Virus record (IMG/VR): IMGVR_UViG_3300026189_000002
Span: 32,001-96,000 of that record
Source: a virus
DNA: 64,000 bases
Strand: one strand, 5' to 3'
A program made the translations under genes and the position numbers. Shown one piece after another: positions 3,981-61,972 of the stretch (position 1 is the stretch's first letter; each line of letters begins with the position of its first letter). The notes under the pieces are model-generated. The model had not been told where the DNA came from. It saw only the letters and a program-made list of their open reading frames with translations, and did no database searches.

Positions 3981-4019
3981 TTACATAATATTTATTTTTG
4001 AGGACACTGGAGATTAACC

Positions 4020-5431: not shown

Positions 5432-6031
5432 TTGAGCGAAGAAGTAAATCCATACGAAAAAGGTTCCTCTAATAAAGAGCACTTAAAAAGTGTTTTTATC
5501 GATCCTAGAGATGCCGACGACCGACCGCTGCAAATAGAGCATCTAAATAAAGAGCAGGGAAGAGCAGACATGTTGTCTGGAAATACTAGGGAAATAGAAG
5601 TAGGAGACCGCGACGAGGACGGAGAAGATGAAGTCTATTTAGTTCCTAGGGTCAACGATACAGAAAAATTGGCTAGCTACTGGGGTTTTAGCGATACAAA
5701 ATCAGTAGATTTACAATATAACGATGCGCCTGACTTTAGTAAAGATGCTACAAGACCGGCTTTTTTAAAATCTCCTTTTTGCCCTAATCTTGTACCTCCT
5801 AGTATAACTCCTGAGACTAGAGGAGCGTTTACTTCTGACGCTGATAATAGTGTAACATTTTCTTTACCAAATGGAGCAGATCCAACAAAACCTCGTTTTG
5901 GAACTAGAAGAGCAGTTTCTAATAGAAACAACGGTTCTTTAAAAAGCCCTTCTGAATTTGTTAGCTCTATTAAAGGCAGAGCTGTTAATCCGCCCGTTTT
6001 AGCTGTGAATCGCGTAAATTTTGAAGATTAG
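5432..6031 (+). CDS. Hypothetical head protein, tandem paralogue 3 of 4
   Basis: Motifs YNDAPDF...FCPNLVPP...TRGAFTSDADN...SPSEF. TTG start after AAGGT. Confidence 0.6.
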   Translation: MSEEVNPYEKGSSNKEHLKSVFIDPRDADDRPLQIEHLNKEQGRADMLSGNTREIEVGDRDEDGEDEVYLVPRVNDTEKLASYWGFSDTKSVDLQYNDAPDFSKDATRPAFLKSPFCPNLVPPSITPETRGAFTSDADNSVTFSLPNGADPTKPRFGTRRAVSNRNNGSLKSPSEFVSSIKGRAVNPPVLAVNRVNFED

Positions 6032-7149: not shown

Positions 7150-8856
7150 ATGACGAAATCCTTATACGAAGACGCGTTAGCGGATGCAAAAGAGCTTAGA
7201 GAGTTAGCCGAAGAGGCTGCAAAGAAAAGCTTAATTGAATCTATAACGCCACAAATACGCGACTTAGTTAATAAAAGACTAATGGGCGAAGACATATCAA
7301 TGGATGACTTAAAAGATCTAGAAGCTCCTGAATCAGATGATGACAGAGCGGAAATGTCTTTTGACGACTTGCCTGATGAGCCTATGCCAGAAGAAATTGA
7401 TGGACCGGTCGTTAATATAGACGCCGCTGGCGACGTAAATATAGATTTATCAGGATCATCTGACGATGATGATGACGAACCCGTGTTAACTGCAGCCATG
7501 GCTGAAAACTTAATGAGGTTAATTAACGGACATCGAGTAAATGAATCTAGCGGTTTAGAAAAAAGATTTAACTTGCTAGAAGAAAGATTTAATAAGTTAA
7601 AAGACGTAATTTCCATTGTGTCTGGTAGATCTGTATCAAATGATAAATCAGCCAGAATTCATAAATCGTATTCCATGTGTGTTAAAGAGGCGCATAAAAT
7701 ACACAAACAACTAATACTTAAAGAACAAGCGACTCAAGGGGATCTTGAGCAAAGACTGACTATAATGATCAAGGAGATGAAAAACATGTCAAAGTCAAAC
7801 AGTCGCAACATCTTTGACTTCCTCTTCGAGGGTGAGGGCGTTGATGAAAGCGCAGAAGTAAATGAAGCAGCTGCAGCTGCAGCTGGTACTGCAGCACGGA
7901 TGGCTACCGGAATAGCCGGTCACTTGGTCGGCAAAGGCGCAAAAGCTGCTGCTGATAAAGTAACAAGCGAAGCCGATTTAGAAGAGGCTGAGCTTTCTTT
8001 AGAACTTTCTGATGAAGAAAGAGACGAATTAGCAGATGCTGAAGACTCTGCTGCTGTTGACGCAGCTTTAGAGGATATTCTAGGCGATCTTGAAGTTTCA
8101 ATGGAAGCTGGAGATGACGCCGGTGAAGAGCCTGCCGAAGAAGAAGCCGAAGAAGAGGCTGAAGAAGACGAAGATGAAGGCGACGACGAGGACGATGAAA
8201 TGGATCTTCCTGAGGGGTCTCACATGGAAGAGACTTATAACGAAGCCGATACAGTCTACGAAATTGACGAGAATATGCTTAGAGCCGCTCTTAGTAGCCT
8301 TAACGAAGAGGCTTCTGATGAGGCTGATCAGTTTGGCGGAGGCGAACTTGGAGATGAAATGTTCGTTGATGTTGATGAGGAAGACCTTATTAACGCCCTA
8401 GCTGATGAGCTTGGCTCTGTTTCTGAGACTGGCGCTAGCGCTCCTGAGGTTGCTGCTGAGTCACGTTCATATAGAACAATGCGCAGAGAGCTAAACCAGG
8501 CGCACTTGCAGTTAGAGAAATATGACAATACTGTTAGAGAGCTTAAGAAGCAGTTGGTCGAAATGAATCTTTTTAATGCCAAGCTTCTTTATGCTAACAA
8601 ACTAATGCAAAACAAAGATCTTACTCTAAAGCAACAGAAGACGATTGTTGAAGCACTAGACAATGCTCAGACAATAAGCGAGGCTAAGCTTCTCTTTAAG
8701 ACTCTATCAGAGTCGTTGAGAAGAAAAAAGGGAACTAAGAATCTTCAGGAATCAAAAATCTTGGGTTCTTCATCAAAGGTTACCAAGTCCGGACAAGCTC
8801 AAAAAGTGAATCCAGAAGGCGCTCGTTGGGCAGTTCTTGCTGGAATTAAATCATAA
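7150..8856 (+). CDS. Prohead scaffolding/core protein (gp22-like), with a probable internal in-frame start at 7786
   Basis: Very acidic, with a C-terminal coiled coil (LVEMNLFNAKLLYANKL) and a RWAVLAGIK terminus. Lies directly upstream of the capsid gene. GGTGG SD before ATG 7150. Confidence 0.8.
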   Translation: MTKSLYEDALADAKELRELAEEAAKKSLIESITPQIRDLVNKRLMGEDISMDDLKDLEAPESDDDRAEMSFDDLPDEPMPEEIDGPVVNIDAAGDVNIDLSGSSDDDDDEPVLTAAMAENLMRLINGHRVNESSGLEKRFNLLEERFNKLKDVISIVSGRSVSNDKSARIHKSYSMCVKEAHKIHKQLILKEQATQGDLEQRLTIMIKEMKNMSKSNSRNIFDFLFEGEGVDESAEVNEAAAAAAGTAARMATGIAGHLVGKGAKAAADKVTSEADLEEAELSLELSDEERDELADAEDSAAVDAALEDILGDLEVSMEAGDDAGEEPAEEEAEEEAEEDEDEGDDEDDEMDLPEGSHMEETYNEADTVYEIDENMLRAALSSLNEEASDEADQFGGGELGDEMFVDVDEEDLINALADELGSVSETGASAPEVAAESRSYRTMRRELNQAHLQLEKYDNTVRELKKQLVEMNLFNAKLLYANKLMQNKDLTLKQQKTIVEALDNAQTISEAKLLFKTLSESLRRKKGTKNLQESKILGSSSKVTKSGQAQKVNPEGARWAVLAGIKS

Positions 8857-8867
8857 AAGGGGATAAG

Positions 8868-11351
8868 ATGTCTTTTACACTTGAGCAGCTTTCAGAGGGC
8901 ATCCGCGCTCGCCATCTAGGGGCTGAAAACAACAGATTAATTGAAAAATGGACCAAAACCGGTCTTTTACGCGGATTAAACGGTGTTAATCGAGAGTCTA
9001 TGGCTAGACTGCTTGAGAATCAGGCATCCCACGTTATTAAAGAGGCTTCTAGTCTTGGAAATGGTGGTAATGGTGCTTTAACAGCTTCTGGCGACATGAG
9101 AGGCTTCACTAATGTTGCTTTTCCTATCGTTAGAAGAGTATTTGGTGGCCTAATTGCAAATGATCTTGTTTCAATTCAGCCTATGAGTCTTCCTTCAGGA
9201 CTGCTCTTCTATCTTGACTACACAAGAGGCGGAGATCACGGCGTTGGAGATCCTATTAGCGGTCAGTCAAACTCAATATATGATAAAGGTTCTTCTTTAT
9301 ATAATAACCCAACGGGCTCTGCCATAAGAAAAGGTTCAAATGCAGTTGCTGGTCAATATGACCTTGCAGGAACTTCTTTTTCTAGAGCACACGGCAAGAG
9401 GTTGCTGGCTACTGCAGATATTGCAGCAGCTGGAACTGTTTTGGCTGACGGAACAATTGGTCGCGACATTGATGGCGATAACGGCGATAGAACAAAAACT
9501 TTGACAGCAACCGGAGCTGATGCACTTCTCCTTGATTTTGATCAGCAGGTTCTAGACACTGTTGCCGCTGGTGATAGTCATGCATCAGGTTCAAATCCAT
9601 TCTCCTTGCTCTGTGTTAAAACAGAGAACATGACGGATTTAGATCCAACCGCTATCAAGGGCGTTGCGCTACTAGCAAACTCTGGCTCTGCTGAGGGTAT
9701 TGGCGGCGGCGGTGGTCCTGCCTCTGCTACTGTTACAGTTTTAGCTGATTCGTTTGGCGATGCATTTGGAAATGGAAACGAATTAACTATAGGCATAGTT
9801 CTTCCTGCTGCTTTTGTTTCTCCTGAGGCTGGACAAAATGCCGCCGTTCCTGCAGCTCAGACCACAATAAGCGTAATCATTCAAGACTTCGGCGAATTAG
9901 GACCTGGTAATCCTGCACAGAATGCAATACACGTTGATTCTGCCGGAACAGCTAATATTAATGAAGTTGCAACACTTATAGCTAGTGCGCTTAACGGTAC
10001 AGAAGATGCTGCTATTGCTACAAATATAGCAGCTGCTCTAGCAAGTGGCGATGACGACATTGCAGATGGCCCAATTTTTGGTATTACGGCATCTGTGGAT
10101 GGTGCTGTTGTTACAATCTCTCAAGCTCGCGACGGAGATGAACATGCGGTTGGATTAACTGCTGCAGGCCAAGCTCACGATCAAGCTGCTCAAGTAACCC
10201 TAGGCGGTCTAGTCAACGGAAATCTTTCTGGTGGCGTTGATGATGGTACTCCTGTACACCTCAAGGTTGTTGGAAATGACTCAAAGGGTAATCCTTTCCA
10301 AGAGGGTGCTGGTTTGGTTAACATCAGAAGACTAAATGTTCTTGGTACAATGTCGGGCGGCGTCTTTACAGAGAATCCTTTCGCTGACGTAAAAAATGCA
10401 GCTACAGCAATCAGAATGGTTGTTGCAGGCGCTATACCAACAGAGACAATCGAAAAGGCAGAGCTCGATACTTCAGGTTCACTAGTTTACCCTAGAGCTT
10501 CGCAGCTTTCTACAGGAAACGGAGACACTCTAGTTGTTCCTTCTTTTGAGTCTGACTTTAACGGTGCAAACCCGCAGCCTTCAATCCCTGAGATTGACAT
10601 AAAGGTTGAGGCTGTTCCAGTTGTTGCTGAGACTAGAAAGCTAAGAGCAAGATGGTCTCCTGAATTAGCGCAGGACCTTAACGCTTATCACAGCCTAGAT
10701 GCAGAGGTTGAGTTGACTCAGATTCTATCTGAGCAGATTGCCCTAGAGATCGATAGAGAAATTCTCAGCGATCTTTTGACCGGCGCTTCTGCAGCAAACT
10801 TCTTCTGGTCAAGAGCTCCAGGTAAGTTTGTTAACAAGGAAACGGCTGAGGATGGCCCAGCGACCGCTAGCTTTACAGGTACGGTTCGTGAGTGGTATGA
10901 GACTCTAGTAGAGACGATCATAGACGTTGCCAATCAGATTCACAGAAAGACGCTAAGAGGTTCTGCGAACTTCATTGTCTGCGGACCTGATGTTGCGACG
11001 ATTTTAGAAGCTTCAGTTCTTTACAAGCCTAGCTACTCACTTGACGGTGACGGTCAGGTATCAGCGCCGATGGTTATTGGAGCTGATAGAGCAGGAACAT
11101 TGAGCAATAGATTTACAGTCTATAAGGACCCTTATTTCCCACGTAACAAGATCTTGGTCGGTTACAAGGGCGGAAGTTACTTAGAGACAGGTTTTGTATA
11201 CGCTCCTTATGTTCCACTTATCGTTACTCCTACAATCTTCCAGCCTGAAGACTTTACTCCTAGAAAGGGAGTGATGACTCGCTACGGTAAGAAGATGGTA
11301 AGAGCCGATTTTTACGGAACGGTTACTTGCTTGGATATGAATATCATCTAA
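8868..11351 (+). CDS. Major capsid protein paralogue 1 (gp23-like, 827 aa, extra inserted domain)
   Basis: gp23 motifs VSIQPMSLPSGLLFYL, RKLRARWSPELAQDLNAYH, EIDREIL, YAPYVPL and PRKGVMTRYG. Confidence 0.95.
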   Translation: MSFTLEQLSEGIRARHLGAENNRLIEKWTKTGLLRGLNGVNRESMARLLENQASHVIKEASSLGNGGNGALTASGDMRGFTNVAFPIVRRVFGGLIANDLVSIQPMSLPSGLLFYLDYTRGGDHGVGDPISGQSNSIYDKGSSLYNNPTGSAIRKGSNAVAGQYDLAGTSFSRAHGKRLLATADIAAAGTVLADGTIGRDIDGDNGDRTKTLTATGADALLLDFDQQVLDTVAAGDSHASGSNPFSLLCVKTENMTDLDPTAIKGVALLANSGSAEGIGGGGGPASATVTVLADSFGDAFGNGNELTIGIVLPAAFVSPEAGQNAAVPAAQTTISVIIQDFGELGPGNPAQNAIHVDSAGTANINEVATLIASALNGTEDAAIATNIAAALASGDDDIADGPIFGITASVDGAVVTISQARDGDEHAVGLTAAGQAHDQAAQVTLGGLVNGNLSGGVDDGTPVHLKVVGNDSKGNPFQEGAGLVNIRRLNVLGTMSGGVFTENPFADVKNAATAIRMVVAGAIPTETIEKAELDTSGSLVYPRASQLSTGNGDTLVVPSFESDFNGANPQPSIPEIDIKVEAVPVVAETRKLRARWSPELAQDLNAYHSLDAEVELTQILSEQIALEIDREILSDLLTGASAANFFWSRAPGKFVNKETAEDGPATASFTGTVREWYETLVETIIDVANQIHRKTLRGSANFIVCGPDVATILEASVLYKPSYSLDGDGQVSAPMVIGADRAGTLSNRFTVYKDPYFPRNKILVGYKGGSYLETGFVYAPYVPLIVTPTIFQPEDFTPRKGVMTRYGKKMVRADFYGTVTCLDMNII

Positions 11352-11371
11352 GCTTTTAGCTAGCGAAAATT

Positions 11372-11400
11372 AAAAGGGACCTTTTTGGTCCCTTTTTTTT
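11372..11400 (+). terminator. Rho-independent terminator after capsid gene 1
   Basis: AAAAGGGACC-TTTTT-GGTCCC followed by a T8 run. Confidence 0.9.
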
Positions 11401-11433
11401 ATTTTTAGTTTTTTCATAATACATTTTAACAAT

Positions 11434-11440
11434 ATACTTA
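11434..11440 (+). promoter_or_regulatory. Putative late promoter (ATA[ACT]TTA motif) for capsid gene 2
   Basis: ATACTTA just after the terminator. The same motif precedes many virion genes. Confidence 0.55.
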
Positions 11441-11445
11441 GTTAA

Positions 11446-11690
11446 GTGGATATAAGCTGCAAATGGAGGCCATTAATGGATCCAGCGGCGAAAGATTTTT
11501 AAAAGAGGATCAACTCACAATAGTTGTCCAAGAAGTTAATACAGATTGAATTCCCGGCCTTCTGTGTTTGTTTAGTATGGGAATGGTAAGTTCTGTTATC
11601 TAACAGATCGCTCCGGCTGACGCCTAATGGTTGCGATGAAGATTTTGGGGCTTTCCGATTTTGTTCGAATGATGACATAATATATTTTTT
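11446..11690 (+). ncRNA. Putative structured RNA / 5' leader of capsid gene 2
   Basis: GC-richer than the other spacers. Several hairpins (11507-11529, 11538-11568, 11592-11607, 11607-11637) and pseudoknot-compatible pairings. Confidence 0.55.
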
Positions 11691-11703
11691 AAGGAGTAAT
11701 AAA

Positions 11704-13677
11704 ATGTCAAACTTTTCATTGGAGCAGTTGACGGAGGGCATTCGCCAGAGACATCTCGGTAGCCAGAACCGTCAGCTCGTAGATAAGTGGGCCAGAACCG
11801 GTCTACTTCGTGGTTTAGAAGGCACAGGCCGTGAAAACATGGCTCGCCTACTAGAAAACCAAGCTTCACAGGTTCTTCGTGAGGCTTCTAGTCTTGGTGA
11901 CGGCGGCAACGGCGCTCTATCTGCTTCTGGCGATATGCGCGGTTTTACCAACGTTGCTTTCCCTATTGTTCGCCGTGTTTTCGGTGGATTGATTGCAAAC
12001 GATCTTGTTTCAATTCAGCCTATGAGCCTTCCTTCAGGACTGCTCTTCTATCTAGATTATACATCAGGCGCTGCTCACGGAGTAAGCCCCGCTCATGCAG
12101 ACGGCAGAAAAGCTGCTGCAGTTAATCCAGAGGGATCTTCTCTTTACAATGGCCCTTCAGGAGCCGGCGTCAGAACAGGCTCAACAGCAATAGGCGGAAA
12201 ATATGACTTAGGCGGTTTAGCCCAGTCTCGTAACATGAGACTAAATGAAGATCTTGATTTCCTAGGAACCGATGGAGAACCTGCAGCTTCTAGAAACTTT
12301 GTTTTCTTGGCCAATAATCATGATCTACCGGTTATACCTAATGCAAATGATCCCGGTCCCGGAGTTGGAACTACTGGTTTAGCCGGTAGACTTCTTCAGT
12401 TTGATGCACAGACAATTGCTGATATTGAAGCTGGACAAGAAGTCAGCTTCTTGCTTATACCGTTTACGGAGCATAACTTCAAAGACTGCGATTCAACTAT
12501 GGTTAAAGAAATCATGGTAGTTGATGATTCAGATGATGCTTCTTTGACTTATTTTCAAGCAGTTCCTACAACTCGCCAAGGTGCTTCCAACGCCTTAAAC
12601 ATTATGAAGCTTAATCAGCTTGTTAAGGTTGAAGATTCACACGGCACTGCCAAGTTGGATGCTCCCAAGATCGCCGCAATGACTCCCGCACCTTTAGCTT
12701 CTGTTGGAGACGATGATGTATGCTTGTTGGTTGCATGCCATAATGACGGTGGTGCTCTTACTAATGCCGATATGAATGATGGTGCTGGCGGTAAGCTAGG
12801 TGTTGTATATCCAGTTGCATCATCCTTATCTGCTGAAGACGGATCAAGCATAGTTGTTCCTTCTTTCGAGTCAGACATGGATGCTTCTAATCCGCAGCCT
12901 ACAATCCCAGAGATTGACATCAAGGTTGAGGCCGTTCCAGTTGTTGCTGAGACTCGCAAGCTACGTGCACGTTGGTCACCAGAGCTCGCTCAGGATCTTA
13001 ACGCTTATCACAGCCTTGACGCTGAGGTTGAGTTGACCCAGATCCTTTCAGAGCAGATTGCTTTGGAAATCGACCGCGAGATCCTTAGTGATCTTCTTAC
13101 TGGCGCTTCTGCAGCAAACTTCTTCTGGTCAAGAGCTCCAGGTAAGTTTGTTAACAAAGAAACAGCAGCTAATGTAGTAAGTTCCGGAGTTCCTTCTTTT
13201 ACAGGAACTGTTCGTGAGTGGTATGAGACTCTCGTAGAAACAATCATTGACGTTGCTAATCAGATTCACCGCAAGACGCTTCGCGGTTCTGCAAACTTTA
13301 TCGTTTGCGGTCCGGACGTTGCAACAATTCTTGAGGCATCTGTTCTTTACAAGCCTTCTTACACCCTTGATGGTGACGGACAGGTTTCGCAGCCAATGGT
13401 TATCGGTGCAGACCGCGCTGGTACACTAAGTAACCGCTTCACTGTTTACAAGGATCCTTACTTCCCAAGAAATAAGATTCTTGTTGGTTACAAGGGCGGA
13501 AGCTACTTGGAGACTGGATTCGTCTATGCTCCTTACGTACCATTGATTGTCACACCTACAATCTTCCAGCCAGAGGATTTCACCCCACGTAAGGGTGTCA
13601 TGACTCGCTACGGCAAGAAGATGGTTCGTGCTGACTTCTACGGCACAGTCACTTGCTTGGATATGAACATTATTTAA
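11704..13677 (+). CDS. Major capsid protein paralogue 2 (gp23-like, 657 aa; probably the dominant shell protein)
   Basis: Same gp23 motifs as paralogue 1. AAGGAG SD. CGT/CGC-biased Arg codons in the core. Has its own promoter motif and terminator. Confidence 0.95.
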   Translation: MSNFSLEQLTEGIRQRHLGSQNRQLVDKWARTGLLRGLEGTGRENMARLLENQASQVLREASSLGDGGNGALSASGDMRGFTNVAFPIVRRVFGGLIANDLVSIQPMSLPSGLLFYLDYTSGAAHGVSPAHADGRKAAAVNPEGSSLYNGPSGAGVRTGSTAIGGKYDLGGLAQSRNMRLNEDLDFLGTDGEPAASRNFVFLANNHDLPVIPNANDPGPGVGTTGLAGRLLQFDAQTIADIEAGQEVSFLLIPFTEHNFKDCDSTMVKEIMVVDDSDDASLTYFQAVPTTRQGASNALNIMKLNQLVKVEDSHGTAKLDAPKIAAMTPAPLASVGDDDVCLLVACHNDGGALTNADMNDGAGGKLGVVYPVASSLSAEDGSSIVVPSFESDMDASNPQPTIPEIDIKVEAVPVVAETRKLRARWSPELAQDLNAYHSLDAEVELTQILSEQIALEIDREILSDLLTGASAANFFWSRAPGKFVNKETAANVVSSGVPSFTGTVREWYETLVETIIDVANQIHRKTLRGSANFIVCGPDVATILEASVLYKPSYTLDGDGQVSQPMVIGADRAGTLSNRFTVYKDPYFPRNKILVGYKGGSYLETGFVYAPYVPLIVTPTIFQPEDFTPRKGVMTRYGKKMVRADFYGTVTCLDMNII

Positions 13678-13701: not shown

Positions 13702-13735
13702 GGAGGGGTCGTTATTCGGCCCCTCCTTTTTTTTT
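13702..13735 (+). terminator. Rho-independent terminator after capsid gene 2
   Basis: GGAGGGGTCG-TTATT-CGGCCCCTCC followed by a T9 run. Confidence 0.9.
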
Positions 13736-13791
13736 CTTATTTTTAAATCTGATATTTATACTTGTCTATTTTTCTGTTTGAGGTTTATACT

Positions 13792-60200: not shown

Positions 60201-60887
60201 TCATGTAAAGGTATAGGTGATGCGGCTGTACAAGAAATATTGTCGCAAAGGCCTTATACCAGCGTAGAAGATTTATTTTGGAATAAAGACGGCTCGTGGA
60301 AACATTCTAAGTTAAACAAAAGGGCGATATCAGTTTTATTGCAACTAAGAGCTTTTGACTCTATCGAATGGAAAAGTATGTTTAACTCGTATAAACACTT
60401 TCACGACGTTGTAATAGAGAATTGGAACGATATTAAAAAGAGCACTAAGAGAGACCCGGAAAAAGGCAAAAACTTTCTTAAGTCTTTTCTTTTAGAAAAC
60501 AACACCTCTACAGAATGGACAATGCAAGAGTTAGCAGAAAATAGCATGGCTTTGTTAGGAACTGTTAATGTAGAGATGATAATGCCGGATAATCTTCTAG
60601 ATAGGCTTTCTGAAAAAGGCGTGTATTCTATAGACGAGTGGTCTGGAGAAAATATTCACTGGATGCTATTGACCGATTACATCTCTAAAAAAACAAAGAA
60701 AAACAAGCCTTATTTTATACTAACTGGAATGGGAACTTCCGGAAAAAAGCATAAGATATTTTGCTGGAATCCTCCCGCTGATAAAAAACCTAGTAAGTAC
60801 AAAGTTTTTGCAGTACAATTGCAAAGCGGCGATTACGGTTTTTCTACAACTTGGAGCAAACTTATGGAACTACGTCAAGGTAGTTAA
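57297..60887 (+). CDS. dnaE: DNA polymerase III alpha subunit (family C)
   Basis: PHP motifs HAHS..S..DG, TDHG, GCE and DSHY, plus GPGRGS.AGSL, FERF, PDIDTD, HAGG, KFDLLGL, RPGP and YGFN.SH. Confidence 0.97.
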   Translation: MKNKPNRFFGLHAHSGFSTFDGLGYPNEHMDFCLQNGLDGWALTDHGHMNGFGYAQLHADKLKSKGVNFKFIPGCEMYVHPSLETWQIDYDLRAARKRGDSQAEKILLEQREQIITPIHAVTDGDDEVLDVGLDEASLTVENEEETKSAKFYDPIKRRHHLVVLPKTSIGLQRLFSLVSKGYTDGFYRFPRVDYKMLKEAASGGHLMVSTACLGGPLSYEVFRFLQNIEFDNLSQDLLNDESISKKIIESISNSYDDLSFAMGKDNVFLELQFNKLPAQHLVNRAIIEFSRKHGLTDKLVVTCDSHYSSPDHWKEREIYKKLGWLNYKDFDPSSLPSSRDELKCELYPKNADQVWDSFLETTEDMDFYDEQEIISAIERTHDVAHDLIGEISPDRSMKLPSYVIPKDTTADQALVDMCKKALVEKGFNKNSEYVERTISELKVIKQKKFSEYFLTMKKIIDVAWKKMIVGPGRGSGAGSLVNYLLGITNIDPIKYDLLFERFLDPLRTEYPDIDTDVADRDELIALLRDEFGKNNVVPISNYNTFKLKSLIKDVSRFYGIPFQEVNKAISSLERDVNNGRRRDKVSDATFDIQLEEALKYSSSTREYLEKYPEILEPIGVLFKQNKNLGRHAGGVIVSENIEDRMPLILAKGELQTPWIEGMTAKHLETFGWVKFDLLGLETLRIIESTIKLILMKSGVSDPTFEDIKKWYNDNLDPSTMDLSDQSVYENIYHSGRFAGVFQCTQKGAQKLFTNAKPNSIIDIATLTSIYRPGPLSAKVDKIYIGAKKDPSSVDYGHPLIKQVLEPTYGCIVFQEQAMQLCHVVAGIPKLELNKIRKMMKPGGNSDENVEKAMALKERFITGAVENGVEKNTAERLYEKILYFSGYGFNASHAVSYAIISYYCAWFLTHYEKEWITAYLESSSGNPKKLSKAISEAKGLGYKISRIDINLSDRMWTCTDDKVLVPSFSSCKGIGDAAVQEILSQRPYTSVEDLFWNKDGSWKHSKLNKRAISVLLQLRAFDSIEWKSMFNSYKHFHDVVIENWNDIKKSTKRDPEKGKNFLKSFLLENNTSTEWTMQELAENSMALLGTVNVEMIMPDNLLDRLSEKGVYSIDEWSGENIHWMLLTDYISKKTKKNKPYFILTGMGTSGKKHKIFCWNPPADKKPSKYKVFAVQLQSGDYGFSTTWSKLMELRQGS

Positions 60888-60897
60888 GGAGATTATT

Positions 60898-61719
60898 TTG
60901 AAAAAATTTAAAAGCTTGCAAGATGTTTTTCTAAACTACTGTAAAAACATCACAAAAGCGCCTTTAGTAAATAGCAGAGGTTCTACTCAAAGAGAACTGT
61001 TGTTTGAATCGTTTGAAATAACAGACCCTACTGCAATAGACATAAAAGTAGATGATAGAAAGTTTTCTACAAATTATGCCTTAACCGAATGGCTATGGTA
61101 TCTTTCTTGCGATAGAAACGTAAACAACATAGGTAAAATGGCAAAAATATGGAATCAGATATCTGACGAAAAAGGTGAAGTAGAGTCAAACTATGGAACC
61201 TACATAGCTCCTCAATGGTCTTGGATATTAGGAGAGTTAACTGACGATAGAGACTCTAGAAGAGCAACCATAGTAATAAACCAAGTTCATCATAAGTTTT
61301 CTAACGAAAAAGACTATCCTTGTACCCAGTACATACAATTCTTCATAAGAGAAAATAAGCTTCACATGGGTGTAAACATGAGATCCAACGATTTAATTTT
61401 TGGATTGTGTAACGACGTTTTTACATTTTGTCTTTTTCAACAGCTAATGTTAAATGATTTAAATGACAGGGGCGCAGAGTTGGAGCTAGGAAGTTATTTT
61501 CATCATGCTGGAAGTCTTCACGTTTACGAGAGGCATTTTAGTATGGTTTCTGGTATTAATTCAAAAAATCACAGTAGCGAAGAGTGCAATAAATTTGAGC
61601 TTTCTTCGGGAATAACAATGTCTGGGTGCCCAGTCTTGCCTCAAATGGATATGCCCAAGCAGGAAATGCAAAAATATACTAAGAGCGTAAAGGAGAAAAT
61701 ATTCCGTGAATATTCTTGA
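60898..61719 (+). CDS. Thymidylate synthase superfamily enzyme, probably a dCMP hydroxymethylase or other dCMP-modifying enzyme
   Basis: SNYG, DSRRA, YPCT, MRSNDLIFGLCND and SLHVYERH. AAGGAG SD favours a TTG start at 60898. Confidence 0.8.
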   Translation: MKKFKSLQDVFLNYCKNITKAPLVNSRGSTQRELLFESFEITDPTAIDIKVDDRKFSTNYALTEWLWYLSCDRNVNNIGKMAKIWNQISDEKGEVESNYGTYIAPQWSWILGELTDDRDSRRATIVINQVHHKFSNEKDYPCTQYIQFFIRENKLHMGVNMRSNDLIFGLCNDVFTFCLFQQLMLNDLNDRGAELELGSYFHHAGSLHVYERHFSMVSGINSKNHSSEECNKFELSSGITMSGCPVLPQMDMPKQEMQKYTKSVKEKIFREYS

Positions 61720-61972
61720 AGAAGCAAACTCAATAGTAAACCAGAGGTCAGAAGAAAAAGAAAGGCAGTATGGTCCTTTTAGCGAAGGAATGAAAAGGGC
61801 AGCTTCAATAGCTTCAGGCATGTCGGGAAAAGATGTTGATGCAAACGATATGTACATTGCTTTAGTAGCTTTAAAGCTTAGTCGTCAAAGCTATCATTTT
61901 AAAGATGATAATTTACTGGACGCTGTGGCCTATTTAGGAGCTTGGCACAATTTTATAAAGGATGAAAAATGA
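61706..61972 (+). CDS. DUF6378-like small helical protein (putative nucleotide pyrophosphohydrolase fold)
   Basis: IL.EA..IV...R...YG...LKLSR......D...D...Y pattern. AGGAG SD. Confidence 0.6.
   Translation: MNILEEANSIVNQRSEEKERQYGPFSEGMKRAASIASGMSGKDVDANDMYIALVALKLSRQSYHFKDDNLLDAVAYLGAWHNFIKDEK

Follow-up and report, generated by a model that had tools for sequence, protein, structure and literature searches.

The window analysed here is a stretch of 64,000 nucleotides from a 113-kb IMG/VR virus record (IMGVR_UViG_3300026189_000002) of an uncultured marine T4-like phage. It covers a structural module in which all called genes lie on the plus strand except one open reading frame (ORF) of 98 aa (61561-61857), which is nested in a plus-strand ORF at 60808-61719. 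This latter frame encodes 303 aa from a TTG start, and its first 80 nt overlap the 3′ end of the 1196-aa gene before it.

Two genes of the Gp23 family are arranged in tandem and are the only members of this family in the whole record. Capsid gene 1 (8868-11351, plus strand, 827 aa; PF07068 E 7.9e-77, phrog_138) is the last gene of a scaffold-capsid unit and starts 11 nt past an upstream gene of 575 aa. Capsid gene 2 (11704-13677, plus strand, 657 aa; PF07068 E 2e-76) follows after a spacer of 352 nt. Both genes match PHROG 138, the major head protein. Their nearest cultured relatives are Flavobacterium phages, with about 45% identity over aligned pieces (66% of capsid 2).

The initial annotation had described this spacer as the longest non-coding stretch in the window, and this holds since an apparent gap of 673 nt at 60888-61560 belongs to the ORF at 60808-61719. 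It had furthermore proposed that the part at 11446-11703 is a structured RNA of about 250 nt with pseudoknot potential, acting as a regulator of the capsid ratio, as an mRNA stabiliser or as a stand-alone non-coding RNA. We examine below the elements of the spacer, their counterparts in related phages and the readings which they permit. A literature search returned no description of this arrangement.

Terminator and putative late-promoter motif

An intrinsic terminator follows capsid gene 1 on the plus strand (11372-11404). The terminator scan reports a stem-loop at 11372-11396 with a 10-bp stem and a 5-nt loop, and the GC-containing stem runs directly into a U run. The same terminator stands after the first capsid gene in two related loci, L001 and L173, where the stem has changed on both sides (GGGACC/GGTCCC versus GGGAGGC/GCCTCCC) while the element is kept in place.

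The heptamer ATACTTA is found at 11434-11440 (plus strand) and belongs to the family ATAYTTA. The window contains 19 plus-strand copies of this family, ten of which are intergenic in a sequence with only 3.4% intergenic DNA; none of the six minus-strand copies is intergenic. All three copies of the exact motif CATATTTA are intergenic and on the plus strand, and L001 has CATATTTA at the position matching the motif of the window. Further ATAYTTA sites include those at 3988, 13752, 14662, 17734, 29509, 31012 and 45014. Strand-specific enrichment upstream of genes is the behaviour expected from the late promoter of a phage group, and ATAYTTA is likely to be such an element here. The family differs from TATAAATA, the late-promoter motif of T4.

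The remaining ATAYTTA copies lie 1-96 nt upstream of a start codon, usually less than 40 nt. The distance from ATACTTA to the ATG of capsid gene 2 is 264 nt, which makes for an exceptionally long leader. As described initially, the stretch of interest lies between this motif and the SD of capsid gene 2 (AAGGAG, 11691-11696). The position of terminator and promoter motif is kept in L001 and L173, and the order of parts is common to both: terminator, CATATTTA, a leader of about 225 nt, AAGGAG and ATG.

Capsid gene 2 possesses a terminator of its own in the scan (13702-13726). Its 3′ side (13702-13761) repeats the module found behind capsid gene 1, with a strong terminator and then ATATTTA, and the next start codon is only 4 nt further on. 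The downstream junction shows how the junction between the two capsid genes would look if it lacked about 225 extra nucleotides.

Tandem capsid genes in related phages

About 180 related loci were gathered by protein-guided scans. Nearly all of these loci have only one capsid gene, which lies 10-60 nt behind an upstream gene of 450-620 aa in the scaffold position. Tandem capsid pairs were restricted to three of these loci, L001 (3834-5699 and 6001-7914), L173 and L074, with spacers of 298 nt in the first two and 93 nt in the third. Capsid 2 of L001 is 67% identical to that of the window, and L173 is a close variant of L001. Because the long spacer is seen only in tandem pairs, the long leader goes with the duplicated layout and is not typical of the capsid genes of the group as a whole.

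L074 comes from a more distant phage. Its spacer (7888-7980) is dissimilar to the leader of the window and carries a GC-rich hairpin without a U run, and its two capsid copies are each other's closest relatives in the tree. This pair looks like an independent duplication.

Closer relatives are present in a large protein collection (P0002-P0004, with capsid 2 75-78% identical), where P0014 and P0015 are their capsid 1-type partners. Candidate tandem pairs in this collection, matched by the length of the longest contig of each protein, are P0006/P0033, P0007/P0044, P0010/P0018, P0002/P0014 and P0004/P0015, and the protein tree splits them into groups of first and second copies. Given several candidate pairs, tandem duplication appears to mark a whole clade of uncultured marine phages and not one genome. 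In addition, a metagenome scan yielded no relative above 62%, a search of IMG/VR with the insertion domain of capsid 1 found nothing, and the N-terminal coding pattern which recovered L173 found nothing in a further contig collection.

Within each genome (window and L001), the C-terminal 260 aa of the two paralogues are 96-97% identical as protein and only 41-49% identical at four-fold sites. Orthologous capsids of the window and L001 share 87-88% protein identity. Paralogues of the same genome are thus closer to each other than to their counterparts elsewhere, despite scrambled codons. This pattern suggests that the lattice partners have co-evolved or that recombination between the repeats is selected against. 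In a quick protein tree, both paralogues of the window fall into one clade with P0002-4, P0011, P0014-15 and P0017 (support 97), and both paralogues of L001 into a separate one (support 96). Such a topology fits either independent duplications or the co-evolution of paralogues which share one lattice. The derived features shared by the leaders of the window and L001 favour one old duplication event, without settling the question.

The initiation region and the origin of the junction

The leader ends in an open, AU-rich translation-initiation region (11640-11703, plus strand). It contains UAAGGAG, with the SD located 7 nt before the ATG at 11704. These last 64 nt are strikingly unstructured (z +2.2; 200 of 200 shuffles fold at least as well), as expected where translation of a highly expressed gene begins in an open region.

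The end of the leader has recognizable relatives. Its last 40 nt reach z 5.3 against the single-capsid locus L012, and those of the L001 leader reach z 7.0 against L002, 6.0 against L024 and 5.1 against the region upstream of its own capsid gene 1. Where relatives have a single capsid gene, the scaffold gene stops at the UAA of UAAGGAG, and this stop codon overlaps the capsid SD. The final 30-40 nt upstream of capsid gene 2, UAAGGAG included, are homologous to this junction as seen in L002; unlike there, however, no open frame enters the UAA in the leaders of capsid 2. Any coupling with an upstream gene has therefore been lost, and initiation must occur de novo. The homology of UAAGGAG to the scaffold-capsid junction also implies that the duplicated unit carried the very end of the scaffold gene.

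We consider it probable that the stretch is an unusually long 5′ UTR of capsid gene 2, a junction left behind by the tandem duplication of the capsid gene. The duplication as its origin would account for the restriction to tandem pairs; the alternatives are weighed in the following sections.

Conservation along the leader

Three homologous leaders were reached, of which two are near-identical (L001 and L173), and covariation analysis is almost without power in such a sample. Conservation does not extend over the whole length. The segment 11446-11595 of the window is unalignable with L001 5782-5896, scoring -17 where shuffles score -5.6 ± 4.3. The 3′ 93 nt are identical to L001 in 57 of 79 aligned columns, with a score of 9.5 (shuffles -6.4 ± 3.9; z about 4, equalled by 2 of 2000 shuffles).

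The comparison of L001 with L173 offers a finer scale. Third codon positions differ by 12.3% in the 750 nt on each side of the spacer, and the parts of the spacer were compared with these positions by Fisher tests. There are no differences in the terminator and promoter (5703-5792, 0/90, p 3.9e-5) nor in the 3′ part, which matches the initiation region (5927-6000, 0/74, p 1.8e-4); the two ends combined give 0/164 (p 2e-8). The middle (5793-5926) shows 11 differences in 134 positions (8.2%) and two one-base indels (p 0.22). The constrained parts are the terminator-promoter module and the final 74 nt ahead of the start codon; in between, the leader drifts at close to the neutral rate.

Ten of the 13 differences between L001 and L173 fall at unpaired sites of the consensus fold, and each of the three in stems leaves a wobble pair. 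In the first hairpin of L001 (5785-5804), three of the four loop bases have changed, as has one stem base, which still pairs. This pattern, recognized post hoc in one pair of genomes, may reflect a degree of structural constraint in that lineage.

The conserved hairpin block

A conserved block of 41 nt (11607-11647, plus strand) consists of a bulged hairpin at 11607-11637 followed by GAAGAUUUUG. The hairpin has the layout AUCGC-U-CC-GGC[UGAC]GCC-UAAU-GG-UU-GCGAU and a folding energy of -10.8 kcal/mol. The pattern shared among the leaders reads TCGCYCCGGC, a loop of 4-5 nt, GCCTARTGG and then CGATGA-G-TTTTG. Among the hairpins listed in the initial annotation, ATCGC 11607/GCGAT 11633, enclosing GGC-TGAC-GCC, is the one retained in this block, whereas most of the others lie in the unalignable 5′ 150 nt.

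Comparison of the window with L001 at -120 to -37 gives a local score of 15 against 8.0 ± 1.6 (z 4.5), which was attained by none of 2000 shuffles. At the four-fold sites of capsid 2 the same two genomes are only 39-53% identical, which is near saturation; a block conserved over this distance is probably under constraint. Across the three sequences, all nine pairs of the hairpin are standard. Three pairs vary on one side (A-U/G-U, U-A/U-G and G-C/G-U) and none on both, and the internal loop on the 3′ side is retained as UAAU or UAGU.

Each phage record contains a single copy of the block, and 0.93 Mb of related loci yielded no other. Scans of IMG/VR with the hairpin pattern recovered L001 and L173, plus one chance match in a GC-rich coding region of L184. 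Covariance models R1 and R2 detected no extra copy in about 1.4 Mb and in the 0.93 Mb of related loci, and the marginal matches of R1 correspond to the shared start region.

The block may act as a small element of regulation or stability, affecting capsid 2 output or the stability of the mRNA. A more specific proposal is a cis-regulatory operator at 11607-11647 which is bound by a phage protein, possibly a head protein, or cut by a nuclease, and which would set the amount of capsid 2 relative to capsid 1. Retention of the block between lineages near synonymous saturation, intact pairing through three one-sided changes, the preserved UARU bulge on the 3′ side and a near-constant distance to the start codon (in the window the block begins 97 nt upstream of the ATG, in L001 92 nt) all agree with such a role. 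L001 and L173 are moreover identical from the 3′ arm of the hairpin to the ATG, but the 5′ half of the hairpin falls in the part which evolves near-neutrally between them. The hairpin taken alone reaches only z -1.4, no pair has changed on both sides in what are only three sequences, and at a distance of at least 67 nt from the start codon the hairpin leaves the SD untouched. With one copy per genome, it is also not an element common to several late genes. We regard an operator as possible but unlikely. The narrower version, in which a phage head protein would bind here and set the relative amounts of two major capsid paralogues which assemble together, is more doubtful still.

The block may instead be coding sequence which decays slowly, as a weak match to the scaffold end of L002 would suggest. 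Beyond -37, pairwise DNA comparison of L001 with this scaffold end gives z 1.9. An nhmmer profile of 138 upstream regions and a protein profile of 135 scaffold C-termini matched none of the three leaders, and blastx returned nothing. Descent of the block from the 3′ end of a scaffold gene is thus a weakly supported and uncertain suggestion. The block may tune capsid 2 output, mark a processing site or be former coding DNA in slow decay.

The lineage-specific 5′ part

The first 150 nt of the leader (11446-11595, plus strand) are specific to the lineage of the window. They contain hairpins at 11456-11489, 11507-11529, 11538-11568 and 11548-11584 and a mini-ORF of 8 codons (11476-11502) situated 6 nt behind GGAGG (11465-11469), whose counterpart is missing from L001 and L173. 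The stretch as a whole is richer in GC than other spacers, as had been noticed at the outset (38.8% versus 27.8% in the 16 other spacers).

Plus-strand ORFs of 28 and 21 aa in the spacer are without counterpart in L001, and a 41-aa spacer ORF of L001 is frameshifted in L173 by an insertion of 1 nt. A small protein-coding gene in the spacer was rejected, as no ORF is kept across relatives.

Homing-endonuclease genes sit between conserved genes in T4-type phages, and the 5′ 150 nt could be the remains of a small gene or mobile element which once separated the capsid genes. Its GC content of 40% is closer to coding than to spacer DNA, short ORFs are present, and the complete difference between the window and L001 in this part is what independent insertion or decay predicts. 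Searches for a source were nonetheless empty throughout: the 5′ 150 nt matched none of the neighbouring genes at the DNA level and none of the neighbouring ORFs or proteins by blastx, and blastn of the spacer gave no match in phage records and only the terminators among all related loci. The frameshift in L173 indicates that the L001 ORF, at least, is non-coding now. We hold a decayed gene or element to be improbable.

Folding of the leader compared with chance

The complementary segments reported in the initial annotation were all found where they had been placed. The stretch as a whole, however, folds no better than shuffled sequence. The MFE of 11446-11703 is -58.6 kcal/mol, compared with -60.2 ± 4.6 kcal/mol for dinucleotide shuffles (z +0.35), and the opposite strand gives z +0.17. 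When the open 3′ end is left out (11446-11640), z is -0.35 and the mean z of local 40-nt folds is -1.28; two coding controls behave alike (z -0.36 and -1.21). Individual hairpins score z -1.1 to -2.75 when folded alone, in windows which were chosen around them.

Helix counts tell the same story. Watson-Crick helices of at least 5 bp number 18 (28.9 ± 5.1 in shuffles), those of at least 6 bp number 4 (7.7 in shuffles) and those of at least 7 bp are absent (2.1 in shuffles). With G-U pairs allowed, there are 36 helices of at least 7 bp against 37.2 in shuffles. Since these counts are at or below those of shuffles, the crossing and mutually exclusive pairings are what any sequence of 258 nt offers. 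The proposed pseudoknot has, in addition, one arm of each crossing helix in the unconserved 5′ part, and the switch-like alternatives depend on partners at 11465-11475 and 11550-11562, which are likewise unconserved.

The initial annotation had recognized no tRNA, intron or riboswitch class in the stretch, and Rfam 15 gave no match across the window at the gathering score. At E values up to 10 (11330-11760), only weak sub-threshold matches appeared, the best of them overlapping the terminator hairpin. No tRNA or tmRNA was found. The terminator scan detected no terminator-like site within 11446-11703, and the stretch continues straight into the SD and ATG of capsid gene 2, which speaks against a stand-alone non-coding RNA.

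That the whole 250 nt form a pseudoknotted RNA, be it a switch, a riboswitch-like regulator or a stand-alone transcript, is highly improbable: complementarities, a GC content above that of other spacers and a leader far longer than the other late leaders of the window do exist, but set against them are a fold and helix counts no better than chance, the empty Rfam search once terminator-driven matches are put aside, a 5′ 150 nt with an arm of every crossing pair and no counterpart in L001 or L173, a near-neutral leader middle in the sister lineage and the lack of a terminator or other 3′ end signal before the SD.

The initial reading holds for an unusually long capsid 2 leader and for one hairpin, which lies in the conserved block; structure over the whole length, the pseudoknot and the switch are not supported in a stretch which is for the most part unconserved and shows no covariation. 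Folding no better than shuffles and a lack of conservation and covariation are two outcomes which the initial annotation had itself named as refuting its proposal, and both apply to most of the 250 nt. Only the hairpin block at 11607-11647 and the open initiation region show evidence of function.

Proposed expression of the two capsid genes

The long 5′ UTR at a duplication junction, which is the reading we prefer, suggests the following sequence of events. The major capsid gene would have been duplicated in tandem, which created a non-coding junction before capsid gene 2. Capsid gene 1 would be transcribed together with the scaffold gene, and this transcript would end at the terminator (11372-11396). 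Capsid gene 2 would then be transcribed anew from the late-type promoter ATAYTTA (11434-11440), in addition to read-through of the terminator. A terminator followed by a separate promoter would make the two paralogues separate expression units.

The transcription start, which we infer from the motif, would give rise to a leader with three parts. The first comprises about 150 nt of lineage-specific sequence, which is ordinary in its hairpin content and gives no indication of constraint. The second would be the conserved 41-nt block, whose bulged hairpin lies 67-97 nt upstream of the start codon and may serve mRNA stability, mark a processing site or bind a protein. The third would be the open, AU-rich region where ribosomes land, with a UAAGGAG probably brought along by the duplication.

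Public sequencing data cover part of this region. Among four runs, X5 provides a DNA contig over 11136-12014, which has 9 differences. Contigs from RNA libraries start at 11576 (X6) and 11676 (X15), and no RNA-library contig covers 11440-11547; such contigs are uninformative on transcript ends or on the absence of a transcript.

Relation to known systems and biological significance

In phage T4, genes 23 and 24 encode the major capsid protein and its vertex paralogue and are adjacent late genes. The present locus is similar in that Gp23-family genes follow one another just past the scaffold gene and in that the second has a late promoter of its own, here a predicted one. In contrast to the T4 pair, the capsid cores of the window are 96% identical as protein, and this speaks for variants which assemble together, not for a long-established specialist of the vertex. 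Furthermore, most relatives have a single gene at this locus, and the spacer of the window carries a long non-coding leader.

The 5′ UTR of ompA is an example of a stabiliser of bacterial mRNA with a stem-loop at the 5′ terminus. The capsid 2 leaders resemble it by a hairpin near their predicted 5′ terminus (window 11456-11489, L001 5785-5804) and by the loop changes between L001 and L173 under which the stem still pairs. They differ from it in that the hairpins of the window and L001 are non-homologous and the transcript start is deduced from the motif.

Translational operators of phages include the coat-protein hairpin of MS2/R17 with its bulged base, the leader pseudoknot of T4 gene 32 and the operator of T4 gene 43. 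The present system shares with them a small hairpin with a bulge, located in the leader of a dosage-sensitive phage gene. Unlike them, the hairpin described here ends 67 nt before the start codon, clear of the SD and AUG, the pseudoknot is unsupported and no Rfam family matches.

The late regions of phages commonly contain long 5′ leaders, small hairpins within them and junctions of a terminator with a promoter. The broader interest lies in a clade of uncultured marine T4-like phages with two major capsid genes, whose protein cores are near-identical, whose codons have strongly diverged and which would be expressed as separate units. If the hairpin tunes the output of capsid 2, it would provide a handle on how the make-up of a mixed capsid lattice is controlled. 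If it were an operator for a head protein, these phages would possess a form of dosage control specific to duplicated capsid genes.
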